This document shows, piece by piece, positions 20,717-28,060 of a stretch of 28,060 nucleotides of DNA (position 1 is its first letter; every line of letters starts with the position of its first letter). The stretch is taken from positions 1-28,060 of the IMG/VR virus record IMGVR_UViG_3300031811_000008; one strand, given 5' to 3'. The notes beneath the pieces are model-generated. The model was not told the DNA's origin, did not search any database, and was given only the letters and a program-made list of their open reading frames with translations. The stretch comes from a virus (lineage: Duplodnaviria > Caudoviricetes). The position numbers were made by a program, and so were the translations under genes.

Positions 20717-20780
20717 TTCTACCCCCGGTAGATTGTCCCGAATCCCCGATTCGGAACGGTGAGCGCCAGTGTTGAAAAGA

Positions 20781-20810
20781 AATATACCGGAAAATCCTCT
20801 CTCCAATCAA
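20781..20810 (-). promoter_or_regulatory. Putative promoter of the scaffold-capsid-tail operon
   Basis: TTGATT-18 bp-TATATT on the minus strand, about 65 bp upstream of the scaffold ATG. Confidence 0.55.
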
Positions 20811-20840
20811 GCCAATTCCCCCCGGGGGCCAGAAAAAGGC

Positions 20841-20869
20841 TTGACTCTCTATATCACATGCGCTATATT
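20841..20869 (+). promoter_or_regulatory. Sigma70-like promoter of the + strand island
   Basis: TTGACT-17 bp-TATATT, near consensus. Confidence 0.8.
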
Positions 20870-20920
20870 CTTCACTGTGGCCGGGGCAATAAGGCGCCGG
20901 CGGCGAGGGGAGAAAATAAA

Positions 20921-21379
20921 ATGTCGGAATTTACAGTTAAGCCGGGCGACGAGGTTAAAATTCGATACACCGAATGGACTCCGAGCAAGGAATTTACGCG
21001 GACAGCCTCGGGAACCGTATTGGCCGCGATCTGCGAAAACGACAAAGGAATCGTGACCGAAATCGCGGTTCGCTTGGAAGGATCGCGGCAGAACAGCCGC
21101 GATCCTGAGGCTTACGAATGGCGCGATATCGTCCGAGTCGGCCCCGACGCGGTGCGCGCTTTGATTGTCTGCGACGAGGACGAGGACGAGCGTTGTCACA
21201 TCTGCGGAACCTGCGTTCCCGATCCGAACCGTTCCCTCTGCTCGGCCTGTGGCGAGGTAAGAGCCCACGTAATCGGCCGCCCTATGATAGCCCGAGCAAT
21301 CCTAAGAGCGCTCGACGACGAGCGCTTAACTGAGCCCGTGACCGAGGTTAAAGTCGGGCTCACCGAAACGGCATTCTAA
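20921..21379 (+). CDS. Hypothetical protein, KOW/SH3-like N-terminus plus C4 zinc finger
   Basis: 152 aa from ATG 20921 with GAGGGGAG RBS; VKPGDEVKI; CHIC-x10-CSAC. Confidence 0.75.
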   Translation: MSEFTVKPGDEVKIRYTEWTPSKEFTRTASGTVLAAICENDKGIVTEIAVRLEGSRQNSRDPEAYEWRDIVRVGPDAVRALIVCDEDEDERCHICGTCVPDPNRSLCSACGEVRAHVIGRPMIARAILRALDDERLTEPVTEVKVGLTETAF

Positions 21380-21408
21380 GTCACCCCCAACTTGAGAGGA
21401 AAAATCTA

Positions 21409-21645
21409 ATGCGTGGTCGAACTTGGCAGTTTAATGTAAATCAGATCGCCGGACAGCTGTTAGCCAAAAGCCCGAACTCCAACGTCGCAGAGGTCGCCGT
21501 CAAGGCGGCCAACATGGTCGACGCGGTATACGCCGAGCAGAGAAAGAGGAACGCGGCCGACTTTGCAGCTGCGGCGGCGGCAGATTCCGATATCGGCCCG
21601 CTGCACTCGGCCGCTGATATCTTCGGAGAGGATACCGAAAATTGA
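21409..21645 (+). CDS. Hypothetical protein
   Basis: 78 aa, GAGAGGA RBS. Confidence 0.75.
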   Translation: MRGRTWQFNVNQIAGQLLAKSPNSNVAEVAVKAANMVDAVYAEQRKRNAADFAAAAAADSDIGPLHSAADIFGEDTEN

Positions 21646-21914
21646 GGTTGAATATCAAGCCCCGCGGCGAAGTGGTCGCGGGGCTCATGCGTGGGGAAGC
21701 CGAAGCGCTACGGGAACCGCTCGACGGCATCCCCTCGAGCGAGCCGGCCACGGACAGAAGCTCCGCGCCGGCCGAGCGTGACTCCATAGATGGGAATAAA
21801 ATGACAGGGATCCGAGCCGCCAAGGAACTTACCAAGGGGGCCGCTCAGGGCTTTGCCATTGTGGTCGCCGGAATCGTCGCCCTGTTGCTTCTATTAAAGG
21901 CGGTGGGATTATGA
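21642..21914 (+). CDS. Small protein with C-terminal transmembrane helix
   Basis: TTGA overlap; GFAIVVAGIVALLLLLKAVGL. Confidence 0.7.
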   Translation: MRLNIKPRGEVVAGLMRGEAEALREPLDGIPSSEPATDRSSAPAERDSIDGNKMTGIRAAKELTKGAAQGFAIVVAGIVALLLLLKAVGL

Positions 21915-22117
21915 CCGACGGCGCTTGGATTGAATTCTCGGCCGTCTGCGCGCGCCTCAAGGGCGACTACAGCCCGAGCCCGAGCCGGCCGCGGGCGAAG
22001 CGGATAACCTGTAGGATCGGCGACAAGGAGCACGTCCAGATATGGAACCCCGAAACTGAGGCTTACGAATGGCTAGCTACAACTACGACAAAAACGGAAG
22101 CCTCGCGAAAACGATAG
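21911..22117 (+). CDS. Hypothetical protein
   Basis: 68 aa, ATGA overlap; overlaps the next gene by 49 bp. Confidence 0.55.
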   Translation: MTDGAWIEFSAVCARLKGDYSPSPSRPRAKRITCRIGDKEHVQIWNPETEAYEWLATTTTKTEASRKR

Positions 22118-22635
22118 CCGTTTCCTTGGATTCCCCCGAGCCCATTCCCGAGGTTGGACATAAGCTAACCGTCGACGGAACGACGTACGCAATTACGAAT
22201 ATCCAACTTGCCGCCGCCGGCAAGTTGGATATTCAAGGCGTTGAGTTGTATTCGAAGGCGACCTGCGACGCGGGCGGCGGGCCGCCCATGCTCAAGGCGA
22301 ACGAGGCCGGCGTCCCGTTGCCGGTCGGGCCGTGGTTCGCGCCGGACGAAGTCGAGGTCTTCAATAAAAACGCCGCCGCCGAATCGGTCTACACCCTAGA
22401 GCGCTTGGTCGAACTCGCGAAGGAAAAGCGGGCGGTCGTCTGCCCGTCGAAGTGGGGAACGCACCATAAGCCGGCCTCGTTCGTGGTGAATATGACCGGC
22501 CGCTTGATATACGGCTTGTTCGAGTTGGGCTTGTTCGTGAAGGAAAAACCGGTAAAAGCCGAGAAGGCCAAAAAGCTGCCGAAAGGGTGGGAACACGATT
22601 CCCCCGGGGGGATCCCCGGGGGGAAGGAAGATTGA
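22069..22635 (+). CDS. Hypothetical protein
   Basis: 188 aa, GAGG RBS, followed by a terminator. Confidence 0.8.
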   Translation: MASYNYDKNGSLAKTIAVSLDSPEPIPEVGHKLTVDGTTYAITNIQLAAAGKLDIQGVELYSKATCDAGGGPPMLKANEAGVPLPVGPWFAPDEVEVFNKNAAAESVYTLERLVELAKEKRAVVCPSKWGTHHKPASFVVNMTGRLIYGLFELGLFVKEKPVKAEKAKKLPKGWEHDSPGGIPGGKED

Positions 22636-22660: not shown

Positions 22661-22707
22661 AAAAGGGACAACCCTTAAGCTTTTACCTTAAGGGTTGCCC
22701 GCTTTCT
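22661..22707. terminator. Likely bidirectional intrinsic terminator
   Basis: CAACCCTTAAG (22669-22679) / CTTAAGGGTTG (22687-22697) stem, flanked by AAAA and TTTCT, between convergent genes. Confidence 0.75.
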
Positions 22708-22734
22708 GCTTACGGCACGATTACGACGCGCTTA

Positions 22735-22760
22735 CGATGATTCGATGATTCGATGATTCG
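22735..22760. repeat. Tandem repeat (CGATGATT)x3 with degenerate flanking units
   Basis: Directly visible. Confidence 0.85.
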
Positions 22761-22770
22761 TACGATTCGC

Positions 22771-22881
22771 TCACCTTCCGCCGCGGCGCTTTGGCTTTTT
22801 CGATTTCTTGCGATGGGGCGGGGTCATTGGCGGCTTTGGCGGGCTGGAACTGCGGCGGGTCTTCGTCGGTGTGCGTGGCAT
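22771..22881 (-). CDS. Very basic 36-aa peptide
   Basis: MPRTPTKTRRSSSPPKPPMTPPHRKKSKKPKRRGGR*; GAGG RBS 9 nt upstream; directly after the MuF-associated genes. Confidence 0.45.
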   Translation of the reverse strand: MPRTPTKTRRSSSPPKPPMTPPHRKKSKKPKRRGGR

Positions 22882-22894
22882 TTTCCATTACCTC

Positions 22895-23242
22895 TCAGGT
22901 TAAGACGGCGATATCCTTCGTCCATCGGCGCTCGGCGTTGTTCCAATGGCTTCGGATGTGATCGAGCACGGCCGCGACGCATTGTGCAACCGTTTTAAAG
23001 CGGTCTGTATCGAAGATCGGCCCGCGGTCGCCAAGCTGCGGCGCGAGCCCGTCGAGGTGGAACTCCAAAAATCCCCGCGGCAATACATCGACCTGTTTCA
23101 TTCGAACCATAACCTCGCGCGCATCCTCGGCGCTTTCATGGCGGCCGACAAATGCGACCTGCACGGCGGCCCCGTCTTCGACCCAAACGCCGACCGGCCG
23201 GTAATGCGGTTGCGGCCCTGTCCACTCTAACATGAATCTCAC
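22895..23242 (-). CDS. Hypothetical protein, candidate MuF immunity/accessory protein 2
   Basis: 115 aa from GTG 23242 (GTGA overlap with the upstream stop). Confidence 0.7.
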   Translation of the reverse strand: MRFMLEWTGPQPHYRPVGVWVEDGAAVQVAFVGRHESAEDAREVMVRMKQVDVLPRGFLEFHLDGLAPQLGDRGPIFDTDRFKTVAQCVAAVLDHIRSHWNNAERRWTKDIAVLT

Positions 23243-23706
23243 GGGCTCACCAAGGCGGGGTCTTCGTCTTCCTCTGCGTCCTCTACGGCCTCGGGAGCGA
23301 CCCACGCCTCGGCCGCGGCTGTATGCTGCGCTATGAGCTCCGCGTCGAGCTCTGGCGTATCTGCGGCGCCTGAGAGGATCCCTAAGCCTCGGTCGTCGGG
23401 AGCGGTGAACGTAAACGTTCGGCCGAGGGCGTTAGCGATTATCAGCCGGTCGCCGTCTGTGCGCCAAGTTTCCGTGCGGATAGTGCGAACCGCTTCGGCG
23501 TCGTTTTCGTACCCGAGCGCCATCGCCAAAAGCCAGACGGCCGCACCGTTGATTTCGCCGGCCTTGTATTCCGGGGCCACGCGCAAGACAACGAGCCTTT
23601 CAATCAAGGTTGAGGATGGCCCGTCGTCGATCATCATGGCCGCCCCGTCCGTGAACGGCGCGAGTTCGCGGGCATACTGCTTTAACATATCCTGGGCGTC
23701 GGTCAT
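23239..23706 (-). CDS. Acidic hypothetical protein, candidate MuF immunity/accessory protein 1
   Basis: 155 aa, ATGA overlap with the MuF stop. Confidence 0.75.
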   Translation of the reverse strand: MTDAQDMLKQYARELAPFTDGAAMMIDDGPSSTLIERLVVLRVAPEYKAGEINGAAVWLLAMALGYENDAEAVRTIRTETWRTDGDRLIIANALGRTFTFTAPDDRGLGILSGAADTPELDAELIAQHTAAAEAWVAPEAVEDAEEDEDPALVSP

Positions 23707-26700
23707 TTTACCACTTCCTCTATTTTGCGGCCGTCGGGTAATATAGCGTATCCGGCGTCCTTGTATGCTTTTATAATTGCGGCGTGCTGCGAAGCTGGCG
23801 CGTGTATGGAATCAATATCGTCGATTAGCGACAGCGACGCCTTGAAGTTGGTTTCGTTGCCCGAATGTTCGGCGATCGAGGCCCACTGAGACGGCTTCGG
23901 CTTGCGGTTGTCGGTTACGTACTGCCCGGTGACGCGACCGTAAGAGTCTTCCGCGTACGGTATCGCGTCCATTCGCCGCAACGACGAGCCCTTAAAATAC
24001 ATATGGCCCGACGACATCTGGGCTCGCCGCCGGATGCGGGTAAAGAAGTAGCTCGCGCCCCCTGAGGTCATATCGGCCCCGGGCGACATTCCGCCAACCG
24101 GAACGCCGATTCGCATCTTCTCTACACTCGACGCCATTACGCCGTTGTTCGCCAAAACCTGTTTAAAGAAACCGCCCATTCCGCCGGCTTCATTCGCGGT
24201 CAAGTTGTGCTGTAATACGAAGTCGGAAACGTCGCCGTCGGTCACGTCGAACCGGGACCACGCGCGATACCCGGCGCTTGAGCCTGTGCCGTGTATGGAT
24301 TCGCGAAACACGCCCGAGGGATTGTATTCGGGAAGGTCTTTCAAGCTGCTCACTCCTGCGGCTTTAACCCTGTCCTTAATCGCTTTCTTTTTGCCCCAGT
24401 GTTTTACCATTGCCGCGACCCGCGTCGCTTTATCGGCCCCCTGCTCGTCGAGAAGCTCAATCATAGCCTTATAGGAGGCCGTAACGTGTTCCTTCGTCGA
24501 GTAAGCCTGTTTGGTCAGATACATAAGCTCGAGGTCGAGCGGATCCGATGCGGCACGTTCGAGGCCCAATTCGTCGAAGTGAGCGAGGGCGCGTTCGAGC
24601 ATGGCCCCGGAAGGCTTCTCGGGAATCATAACCTCGAGCGAGCCTTGTTTCGCGAACCAATCGTCATTTTGGTGGCCGATCGGACGGTAACGAATGCGGG
24701 TTCCGTCTTCGAACTCAATCGCGTATTGAACGCCCTTCTTGCCGTAATAGTCGGAGTGAACCTCTTGAGCGAGAAAGCGGTCGTCGGTGGCAACCAGCTT
24801 GCCCTTGTCCGGCCTGCGGTGGGTGACGTGAAAGTCCTCTTTCGTAACCTTCACCTTAGCGGCGGGCGGCGCTGCCTCAACCGCCTTGCCGGCGTCGGGG
24901 TCGAAAAGCTGCTTGCGCTTGTAGGGGCTGAACCCGAGCCCGCCCGCCACGTCGGGGCCAAAGTCATTTAAAGCGGTTTTTGCGCCGACGTTTTGGTCAA
25001 CGTCCTCGATCACCTTGAGGTACGCCTTCGCCATCGCCGCCACGTCGGGGTCAACATTGGAGAGCAGGGCGTTAAGCTGCGGCTTCAACCCGTGCATATC
25101 TGCAAGCGTCGATTGATTAAACTCGAAGTCGCCCTTCTTGACGTGCGAGTTCAACGTTATAACGGCCTGCTGGATGTTCGGCGCGAAGATATCGGCTTTA
25201 AGCGGGTCCCCGATTACCTCAGGCGCCGCGGTTGCCGTGGACGGTGCAATGTCCTCGATATCCTGGGCGTTGATCCACTTCATTATTTTTGCGTCGCCGG
25301 ACGCGCGGAGCTTGAGGTCGATATTCGTTCGCGTCTTGCCCTGGAACTCGTCGGCGAAGATTAGCGCCTTGAAGTCTTCCACGTCTTCGCCCCCAAGGTC
25401 GATAGAGCGCCCCTGGAAGCCATGCCCTTCGGCCGCGTCTGCAACCTCGGCGAAGGATTGCGGGATCTTTACGGCGGCCGTCGCTGGCGCTGCCGGGACC
25501 GGGGCGGCCTGCTGCCCAAACGTAAACGTGTCGTCGCCAAGAGCGCGGCGGTAATACTGCTCGAAGTCGGAGCGGAGCGAATTCTTCCGGGTGACCGCGG
25601 CGTCGAGGAATTTCTTTCGAGCTGCGGCGCTGTTAAAGCGGTTTGCGGCGTAGCCATCCAAGAGCGCGCGGTAAGTGTCGTCGGCGATCCCTTCGAACTT
25701 CTCGATCGCTTCGAGCGTGACGTTCGGGTCGAGGTCGAGGTCGCCGTCGCGGAGCCCCTTCATAAGCGTATTGTAAATCGGCTCCGACTCTCCGAACGCC
25801 GAGTTCGGGTGGTAATCGAAGTCGAGCTTGTCGTCGCCGAGGAACTTGAACGCCTGCCCCTTGTCGACGCCCACAAGCCGACCGTCTGGGAAGGTGATTA
25901 TCTGCCCCGAGTGTCCGTCGTGGTTTGATATCAGCCAATCGAGGACGTGCTCGCGCTGGACGACTCCCAGCTGAGCTTTCGTAAGGTCGGAAAGCGGAAC
26001 CCCCTTGAGCGTGCCGTCGGCGCCGTCTATCCAACGTTGAATGGATCCGGCGCGACCGTCGGGCATATTGACGAAGCGGGCTTCGGCCGCGGCGGGATCG
26101 ACGAGGCGCTGCATTTTATAGGCGAACTCGTCGGCCATGCCGCGGAATGTCGCCTCTTTTTTCGATACCGAGGGGAACGGCTTGAACATCCAGCGCGAAC
26201 CCAGAGGATCGAGCCAAAACTCCTTAGAGTGAGCGCCCCCGATGTTCGCGGTTCCCTGCGACTGCCAGCCTGCCTCGAATGTCGGGTCAATCACATGCCA
26301 GTTTTCGTCCACCTGAGCGAAGGCGTCGCCAGTGAGCGATGGCGGCGGCGCGGGTGCGTCGGGAACGATCGGCGGCGGCGGGTCGAGCTTTTCCTTGATC
26401 GCGTCGACGGCCTGCTTGGCCTTGGCCGAGCTTTTCCCGTGGAGCGCCCCGGCCTTGTATTTCTCGAGGATCTCGCCGGCCTGAACCGGGGTGATCTTCT
26501 TGGTCGTAACGAGCTTTTGATATTCAACGTGGAACGCGAGTATTTCGGGGTTCACCTTGTTCGCGGCCTCGTTTAGCGCAAAGGCTAAATCCCCTTCGAC
26601 GTTGATCGGGGCGAACGCGCCGGAAGTCGGCTTTGCGTCGAATATCTCACCCCCGAGCTTCTTAATTTTCTTCTGAACCGTGATAAGCTTTTTCGGGCCG

Positions 26701-28060
26701 AGCTTGCCCTCGCCCACTGAGAATAAGAGCGCGTCGTATTCCTCGATTTTCGCGACTACAGAAGAGGCTTTAATCTGGTCGGCCAGATCGCCAAGGAGCC
26801 CTTGTTTTGCGGCCAATGACCCCGGGGTAAAGAGTCCCGACTTCGACATGTCATTGAAAACGTGCTGCTTGTCCGCGAGTTGCTGCGCGAGGTCTTCGGC
26901 ATTCTCGGCGGTGACCCAGAGGTCCAAAGCCTCGAGCTTGTGCTTGTCCTTGGCCGCATCAATGGCGTTGACGTACTTGACCACGGCGTCGTCGAGGAGC
27001 TTCGCCCCCTCGGGGATATCGAGGTCTTCAACCTGCTTTATAAGCGGCGCCAGCGTTTTCGACTGCCCGAAGTGGAACACCTGCGGCGGCGCGGGCGTGC
27101 TGGCTTTCAAATTGGCCTCGACCACGTCGTCGACGAGGGTATCGGCGGCGTTCACGGTGAGGGCGTCGAACTGCCCCGCCAAGTCTTGAAGCTTGCCCTT
27201 CTTAACGACCGCCGTCGCAAGCTTCTTTTTCGCTGCCCACTCGGCCGCGGGTGCGATGGCTTGGAACTCGGTTAACAGCTTTTGAATGTGAGTATCGAGG
27301 GCCGCCGCGTTCGGGCTGGCAAGCAACCCGTCAATGTCCTTGCCCATCGTGGCCGCCTTGGCTGCCTTGGTGGACTGTGCGACTTCCTTGACCGCAATGG
27401 TCGCCGCTTCCTGTAGCGCCGCCTGAGCGACGACTGAGGCGGCCTGGGCGGCCTTCTGCTTGGCATCCTTGGTCGGAGCTTTCGCCTTTGCCGTTTTTGC
27501 GAGCCCGGCGCCCTGGAGTTCCGACTCGGGAACGTCTTCGAACCATTCCGCGCGCCCGGCGATCAAAACAGAGCGGCACAGATGGAACGGGCTCAACCGC
27601 GGCGGCCGGCCATAGATGGTATTATCCCACTCCTCGAGGGACATCGCTTTTTGTTGGGAAGCGTGCTCGCAGATGTACGTCGAGCGGGAATCCTGCGGGT
27701 TCGAATTGCGGAATACGGCCTCGTCGCCGATAGAGTCCTCGGCCAGCTGCTCGTGAGTCCGGTTTATAATGCGGGTCGACTCGATTCGGGCAATGGCCTG
27801 CGCTCGCTGCTTTATCGAGCGGTGAATAACCTTCCCCGTCGAGGACTTGATCGTAATCGGCTTTATGCGCCCGCCTGCAATCAAACGGCTTTTAAGCGAG
27901 TCGACGTTCGGGTTGTGGTGGTCGACCGGGATTCCTTCGACTACGGAGTCCATCATTGTTTGACGGAACCAAACGCCCACGTCGTCGCCGACGGTGTTCA
28001 TAATCTGATAGCCCGAGGTATATCCGACCTTGAGGATTCCCTTCTCGGCTACGGAGACGT
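23703..28060 (-). CDS. Giant MuF (phage Mu gpF / SPP1 gp7-like) head morphogenesis protein with kinase-like and putative ADP-ribosyltransferase domains; 5'-truncated
   Basis: Frame stays open past ATG 28001 to the window edge; RAQAIARIESTR..DSRSTYIC..PP..PFHLCRS (MuF); GGAHSK..WMFKP..E..GSIQ..DWLISNHDGHSGQ..VDKG (kinase); QHN..GGASYFFTR..NETNFK (ART-like). Confidence 0.85.
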   Translation of the reverse strand, partial: VSVAEKGILKVGYTSGYQIMNTVGDDVGVWFRQTMMDSVVEGIPVDHHNPNVDSLKSRLIAGGRIKPITIKSSTGKVIHRSIKQRAQAIARIESTRIINRTHEQLAEDSIGDEAVFRNSNPQDSRSTYICEHASQQKAMSLEEWDNTIYGRPPRLSPFHLCRSVLIAGRAEWFEDVPESELQGAGLAKTAKAKAPTKDAKQKAAQAASVVAQAALQEAATIAVKEVAQSTKAAKAATMGKDIDGLLASPNAAALDTHIQKLLTEFQAIAPAAEWAAKKKLATAVVKKGKLQDLAGQFDALTVNAADTLVDDVVEANLKASTPAPPQVFHFGQSKTLAPLIKQVEDLDIPEGAKLLDDAVVKYVNAIDAAKDKHKLEALDLWVTAENAEDLAQQLADKQHVFNDMSKSGLFTPGSLAAKQGLLGDLADQIKASSVVAKIEEYDALLFSVGEGKLGPKKLITVQKKIKKLGGEIFDAKPTSGAFAPINVEGDLAFALNEAANKVNPEILAFHVEYQKLVTTKKITPVQAGEILEKYKAGALHGKSSAKAKQAVDAIKEKLDPPPPIVPDAPAPPPSLTGDAFAQVDENWHVIDPTFEAGWQSQGTANIGGAHSKEFWLDPLGSRWMFKPFPSVSKKEATFRGMADEFAYKMQRLVDPAAAEARFVNMPDGRAGSIQRWIDGADGTLKGVPLSDLTKAQLGVVQREHVLDWLISNHDGHSGQIITFPDGRLVGVDKGQAFKFLGDDKLDFDYHPNSAFGESEPIYNTLMKGLRDGDLDLDPNVTLEAIEKFEGIADDTYRALLDGYAANRFNSAAARKKFLDAAVTRKNSLRSDFEQYYRRALGDDTFTFGQQAAPVPAAPATAAVKIPQSFAEVADAAEGHGFQGRSIDLGGEDVEDFKALIFADEFQGKTRTNIDLKLRASGDAKIMKWINAQDIEDIAPSTATAAPEVIGDPLKADIFAPNIQQAVITLNSHVKKGDFEFNQSTLADMHGLKPQLNALLSNVDPDVAAMAKAYLKVIEDVDQNVGAKTALNDFGPDVAGGLGFSPYKRKQLFDPDAGKAVEAAPPAAKVKVTKEDFHVTHRRPDKGKLVATDDRFLAQEVHSDYYGKKGVQYAIEFEDGTRIRYRPIGHQNDDWFAKQGSLEVMIPEKPSGAMLERALAHFDELGLERAASDPLDLELMYLTKQAYSTKEHVTASYKAMIELLDEQGADKATRVAAMVKHWGKKKAIKDRVKAAGVSSLKDLPEYNPSGVFRESIHGTGSSAGYRAWSRFDVTDGDVSDFVLQHNLTANEAGGMGGFFKQVLANNGVMASSVEKMRIGVPVGGMSPGADMTSGGASYFFTRIRRRAQMSSGHMYFKGSSLRRMDAIPYAEDSYGRVTGQYVTDNRKPKPSQWASIAEHSGNETNFKASLSLIDDIDSIHAPASQHAAIIKAYKDAGYAILPDGRKIEEVVK

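Follow-up and report, generated by a model that had tools for sequence, protein, structure and literature searches.

A conserved phage head protein that joins a predicted HipA-type kinase to a predicted DarT-like ADP-ribosyltransferase fold, followed by two candidate partner genes

MuF proteins are phage head proteins of low copy number, and it has been proposed that their tips travel into the host along with the DNA (PMC5576092, PMC9503650). In the account of Jamet 2017 (PMC5576092), ADP-ribosyltransferase (ART) domains are common among these tips (14% of 191), and small overlapping acidic genes are the usual immunity layout behind the toxins. A 28,060-nucleotide (nt) stretch of a Caudoviricetes contig (IMG/VR record IMGVR_UViG_3300031811_000008, positions 1 to 28,060; hereafter the window) encodes a large protein that resembles the MuF polymorphic toxins of temperate phages described there, with a MuF N terminus in the head module, a C-terminal enzyme domain, and a small gene directly downstream. 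Unlike those toxins, the window family has two enzyme domains, two partner genes (here d1 and d2), and conservation across phyla; the word "kinase" is absent from the main text of that study. On balance, we favor the view that this MuF head protein combines a HipA-type kinase with a predicted DarT-like ART fold, is likely packaged and injected with the DNA, and likely has each of its two modules checked by one of two overlapping partner genes. The observations behind this view are the domain order, the intact conserved residues, a fold match, the operon, and a pattern of co-occurrence.

Several effector domains, including kinases and ARTs, also share one virion-associated polypeptide in the polyvalent proteins of phages and conjugative elements, as presented in Iyer 2017 (PMC5512222). 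The kinases in that account lack a C-terminal subdomain and its ARTs are of the H-Y-D type (Tox-ART-HYD2), whereas the window kinase is a 260-amino-acid (aa) HipA-type domain and the Glu-bearing window ART is DarT-like in its predicted fold. The window likewise recalls Bxa-Bsi-BAH of a Bacteroides prophage, an ART toxin with two cognate immunity genes; as described in PMC11699363, both neutralize one toxin domain there, whereas the window pair seems to follow separate modules. A full-text literature search found no paper on a HipA-type kinase plus a DarT-like ART on MuF, although the supplementary tables of Jamet 2017 and Iyer 2017/2022, outside its scope, may list such proteins. These accounts (PMC5576092, PMC5512222, PMC11699363) thus already cover MuF toxins and their immunity genes, polyvalent phage proteins that include kinases and ARTs, and a prophage ART neutralized by two immunity proteins; what is new is the combination, and its kind is known. 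The original prediction, which called the locus the strongest candidate for an undescribed system in the window, was overstated in this respect; nor is the finding special to the window, as the family is common and conserved.

Motifs and profile matches support the assignment of residues 590-850 to the HipA/PI3-4K-like atypical kinases as a predicted kinase, at 26291-25509, where a kinase-like domain had been expected at about 26270-25520. The motifs comprise G607-G608-A-H-S-K612, K626, D707-W-L-I-S-N-H-D714-G-H716, and D732-K-G-Q735. K626, D714, and D732 are invariant (100%) and G608 is kept in 89% of 168 domain copies from 50%-cluster representatives; we take G608, K626, D714, and D732 to be the Gly loop, the ATP-binding Lys, the catalytic Asp, and the metal-binding Asp, respectively. 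About 110 conserved residues are kept after D732. Among 40 aligned members, 26 match HipA_C at E ≤ 0.1 (best 2.3e-6), 9 match Fam20C, and 7 match PI3_PI4_kinase; the window copy alone has no Pfam match. Atlas features scoring 0.92-0.96 point to clusters named PI3_PI4_kinase (19% of members), HipA_2 (46%), and LepB_N (99%), and the kinase profile finds weak Fam20 kinase matches in the PDB (E 0.28-2.4). The HipA toxin proper comes with a HipB-type HTH antitoxin encoded upstream; the window domain is internal to a head protein, and its substrate may be a protein, a lipid, or a small molecule.

The same kinase domain is present, unannotated, in mycobacteriophage proteins McProf gp54, Onyinye gp16, and Phrappuccino gp195 (L002:5001-5753, L003:5001-5753, L004:5001-5717). 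McProf gp54 and Onyinye gp16, annotated "minor capsid and ADP-ribosyltransferase fusion," resemble the window protein in placing this kinase (30-35% identity) ahead of an ART, with one small gene after it, but their ART is VIP2-type, they have no middle region, and the downstream gene has no detectable kinship to d1 or d2.

Structure models support an ART fold, nearest DarT, for the C-terminal domain, a predicted ADP-ribosyltransferase. Its core spans residues 1275-1451 (24236-23706), close to the 24300-23703 first proposed, and ends the protein. The expected pattern of a His in the first strand, an aromatic residue in the second, and a late Glu is present, and H1284 (78%), Y1337 (83%), F1339 (85%), and E1402 (99%) are conserved, each at or beside a strand in the models. 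Folded alone, the core reaches a pLDDT of 84. The ART-core profile has no match in the PDB or Pfam, and Foldseek with a 592-residue model gave no match at E ≤ 0.001. In the ART tree, the window groups with L168, L304, and L166, and the kinase-less L171 sits on a long, unsure branch. A lead from the Atlas to OspC (rank 30, score 0.82) was rejected as to membership: OspC/CopC ADP-riboxanases have a Glu-x-His catalytic pair and a C-terminal ankyrin domain in the description of PMC9239266, whereas the window protein has E1402-T-N without His and no C-terminal ankyrin domain. No OspC chain is among the 50 VIA matches listed, though the two may still be related in fold.

The four best fold matches are all DarT chains, DarT is also the PDB row of highest Foldseek probability (0.57, TM 0.48, E 0.61), and the domain is basic. 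These features would suit a narrower form of the favored view, in which the ART acts like DarT on nucleic acid (host DNA, or incoming phage DNA as a shield) and not on protein. We hold this target to be unlikely, if the least so of the alternatives weighed here: the protein-modifying SopF and CteC follow within the next 2 Z units, and DarT1 requires R52 and D54 by the account in PMC11543638, whereas in the window family D1329 is invariant but no Arg between 1317 and 1340 is conserved at 75% or more, the DarT position being judged by spacing only. Nor does any of 58 d1 members or the window d2 have a Pfam match to a macrodomain (as in DarG) or NADAR, the antitoxin types of DarT operons. DarT enzymes ADP-ribosylate single-stranded DNA; the window ART, unlike them, is fused to a head protein.

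The middle region, which the original prediction had listed as an unassigned domain, is present but does not stand alone; in the model, its strand-rich segments are split by a helical bundle, the region travels with the ART domain, and its fold matches are non-specific helical-bundle matches only.

The two small genes overlap the preceding stops, as had been noted: the ATG of d1 sits in the MuF stop (ATGA), and the GTG of d2 in the d1 stop (GTGA). From 160 loci screened, 19 with shorter downstream sequence and 1 open locus were dropped; in all 140 of those with at least 900 nt downstream, homologues of both d1 and d2 are present, though this set is redundant, collapsing to 59 and 56 clusters at 85%, and the d1 and d2 profiles were grown from the same loci with the window genes as seed. 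Because both are conserved in relatives, d1 and d2 are not chance open reading frames (ORFs). In 42 non-redundant loci, the successive gaps run from -16 to +26 nt and then from -19 to +2 nt, under a start rule that favors overlap. Neither gene matches a known family in Pfam, PHROG, and further library searches. Neither Pan1 gp16 as a d1 nor McProf gp55 as a d2 was supported (profile-profile probabilities of 0.2% and 0.6%), and d1 and d2 were rejected as paralogues of each other on comparison.

Two lineages that lack the kinase, L171-173 and L312-313, differ in their MuF domains; both keep d1 (E 4e-22 and 2e-22) and have no d2 within ~1100 nt, indicating that d1 tracks the ART module and that d2 tracks the lost kinase and helical bundle. 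Partial correlations of pairwise identity, which are weak, come from non-independent pairs, and serve as a hint only, associate d2 with the kinase (0.39) and the middle region (0.43) over the ART (0.05) and the bundle region (0.09); those of d1 are 0.14-0.25 with all parts. As a pattern, these data support one partner per module, d1 with the ART and d2 with the kinase, and make both genes candidate antidotes. Three sets of loci weigh against a strict rule: 22 kinase+VIP2 loci have neither d1 nor d2; 5 of the 17 listed are without any small gene; and L185, L187, L269, and Pan1 join the ART module to other genes with no detectable kinship to d1 or d2. The predicted pair of antidotes or partners is thus borne out as a co-occurrence pattern and not as a strict rule. 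In another clade, a third small-gene family (~110 aa) follows the ART module (L185:8904-9239, L187:9776-10111, L001:6944-7273) and is possibly a separate antidote.

Two other roles for d1 and d2 bear on the same data. Both could neutralize a single toxic domain, as Bsi and BAH do for Bxa in PMC11699363, and kinase+VIP2 phages often lack a d2-like gene; we regard this as very unlikely, since d2 is missing from both lineages that keep the ART without the kinase, and its distances do not track the ART core after control for the other domains. Alternatively, d1 and d2 might serve the large protein in assembly, processing, or ejection, or be head accessories. Their place in the head operon and their lack of a known family would fit such a role, but this seems improbable to us: the presence of d1 and d2 varies with the C-terminal modules rather than the type of MuF, d1 is found behind the ART in proteins that differ in MuF domain, and the layout is the one usual for MuF immunity in the account of PMC5576092.

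Relatives are encoded on 311 viral-contig stretches and 224 bacterial genome-contig stretches, 80 of each being kept; the genome-contig records include Armatimonadota, Acidobacteriota, Nitrospiraceae, Desulfobacterales, Dehalococcoidia, Gammaproteobacteria, and others. Among the 80 genome loci, the frame is intact and at least 1100 aa long in 60, shorter but closed in 8, and cut off by the contig end in 12. Among 50%-cluster representatives, 1803 match at E ≤ 0.001 and 530 at 1e-30. The exact domain order of the window recurs in 61 of 134 new representatives, and two tandem kinase domains precede the ART core in 22 of the 134 (P0145, P0161, P0165, and others). The family falls under PHROG 6577, which P0010 matches at E 6e-233 and which is annotated without function.

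The kinase and the ART core occur together in 128 of the best 150 50%-cluster representatives, another kinase subfamily stands in front of the same ART in L185 and L187, and in mycobacteriophages the kinase of the window type is followed by a VIP2 ART, which is unrelated. Such linkage could reflect one coupled machine, in which the kinase makes a phosphorylated acceptor or activates the ART, and d1 and d2 regulate or chaperone the pair. However, the representatives were ranked by total score, which favors proteins with both domains, and full-length proteins without the kinase (L171, P0206, Pan1) retain the ART motifs, so that the ART can do without a kinase of its own; we consider such coupling rather unlikely. 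Pseudanabaena phage Pan1 gp15 shares MuF and the ART module with the window protein (28% identity), differs in its missing kinase and its different small gene, and, like PHROG 6577, carries no enzyme annotation.

Other arrangements occur among the relatives. Protein P0095 (2515 aa) has a Nudix match, the kinase, and the ART module, with no MuF match. In many relatives, an ORF of 800-1400 aa directly follows d2, before the capsid genes (L005:10638-14462, L024:10561-14460, L038:5390-9568, L047:10631-13027). The kinase+VIP2 genes of L248, L251, L252, L253, and L267 run straight into long ORFs whose paired H-x-T motifs, by eye, recall 2H phosphoesterases.

The N terminus of the window protein is a divergent MuF domain, as neither the window copy nor its five closest relatives match a MuF family in Pfam. 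MuF-like motifs lie within residues ~88-163 (ARIESTRIIN, D-S-R-S-T-x-I-C, and P-F-H-L-C-R-S), and the N-terminal part (175 residues), which matches no Pfam family, aligns with phrog_4728 ("head morphogenesis") over residues 82-200 (E 1.9e-4); the predicted frame of more than 1450 aa with N-terminal MuF motifs is therefore confirmed. The MuF part is 78-83% identical to residues ~120-304 of five full-length relatives. By a hand count of 94 relatives found by searching with residues 560-1451, PF04233 occurs in 62 and PF06152 in 3, whereas the window MuF escapes both of these MuF toxin families; the same C-terminal block thus sits behind more than one MuF type. The predicted Ala/Lys spacer (residues 176-576, 31% Ala+Lys) aligns with the five closest relatives over parts only (39-50% identity). 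In P0019, P0033, P0050, P0078, and other relatives, SAP (PF02037) and Rho_N (PF07498) matches, absent from the window protein, probably fall in the spacer and suggest nucleic-acid binding that could tie the protein to ejected DNA.

Sequence searches with the whole large protein gave no significant match in Pfam, NCBIfam, or the PDB, and a single-protein scan of viral contigs gave none. The window is a single phage contig; downstream of the large ORF, its minus strand carries genes for the scaffold (phrog_206), major capsid (phrog_283), tape measure, and tail fibre. Locus L183 and the window end have 127 nt in common at 100% identity, and L183 supplies the missing start. Window residue 1 aligns to residues 120-130 of five full-length relatives, and the whole protein would therefore have ~1575 aa. 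Upstream of the large gene, L183 has three ORFs that, by their motifs, we take to be the small terminase, large terminase, and portal; they end ~560 nt before it, with one small ORF in between, and through L183 the window gene would thus lie just downstream of the presumed portal gene, as MuF toxin genes do. Between d2 and the scaffold gene, five opposite-strand ORFs (20759-22635, plus strand) break the head operon, one of which (78 aa, 21409-21645) has same-orientation homologues in L166 and L168. After d2 and a 55-aa ORF (22721-22888), a near-perfect inverted repeat (22665-22700), with a short run of T after it when read on the minus strand, looks like a terminator.

Table 1. Positions of the large MuF gene, its parts, and the two downstream genes in the window
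Feature	Position	Strand	Basis or remarks
Large MuF ORF	23703-28058	-	1451 codons; frame open at contig end
Divergent MuF (minor head protein) domain, C-terminal part	27534..28058	-	phrog_4728; relatives; ~120-130 N-terminal residues beyond contig end
Ala/Lys-rich spacer ending in Pro-rich linker	26331..27533	-	Variable among relatives
HipA/PI3-4K/Fam20-type atypical kinase domain (predicted)	25509..26291 (residues 590-850)	-	Motifs, profile matches
Middle region	24579..25481	-	AlphaFold model; strand-rich segments (~884-917, 1069-1145) split by helical bundle
Helical bundle in middle region	25205-24975 (residues 952-1028)	-	AlphaFold model; absent from kinase-less relatives
Conserved helical subdomain before ART core	24237..24578	-	Alignment, model; E1177, L1181 invariant
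ART-fold domain, nearest DarT (predicted)	23703..24236	-	H1284, S1325, D1329, G1333, Y1337, D1371, E1402
d1, candidate partner/antidote of ART module	23239..23706	-	Co-occurrence; 155 aa, acidic (pI 4.1)
d2, candidate partner/antidote of kinase (or helical bundle)	22895..23242	-	Co-occurrence; 115 aa

In the arrangement that we favor, the large protein would be packaged in the head and injected with the phage DNA, bringing two enzymes into the host. At infection, the kinase would phosphorylate a conserved host protein and the ART-fold domain would move ADP-ribose from NAD+ to a host macromolecule, both activities slowing the cell or blunting its defenses early, as the phage becomes established. 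In the cell that makes the particles, d1 and d2 would come from the same late transcript and bind the ART module and the kinase, respectively, and this binding would keep late expression from poisoning particle assembly. From the conservation across phyla we infer a conserved target and host control more than strain-versus-strain warfare; of the uses first suggested (host takeover, anti-defense, and inter-strain competition), the last is the least favored, given this conservation and the position of the cassette within the head operon. A bolder claim, that a large temperate-phage family injects a DarT-like DNA ADP-ribosyltransferase and a HipA-type kinase from the head, two anti-phage toxin types turned on the host, with new antidote families, d1 and d2, one for each enzyme, strikes us as doubtful.

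The locus offers a conserved, testable case for how MuF tips act once injected: it has two enzyme domains, catalytic residues that can be named, and a pair of candidate antidotes, and its family spans hundreds of phages and prophages from many phyla, with cultured strains among them (e.g., L097, L125, L127, L133, L139). Further gains are an ART family close to DarT that was unlisted, a kinase that had gone unannotated in mycobacteriophage head proteins already known, and, in d1 and d2, two small protein families without a database entry. If the ART does act on DNA, the phage would deliver a toxin type so far known from anti-phage defense.
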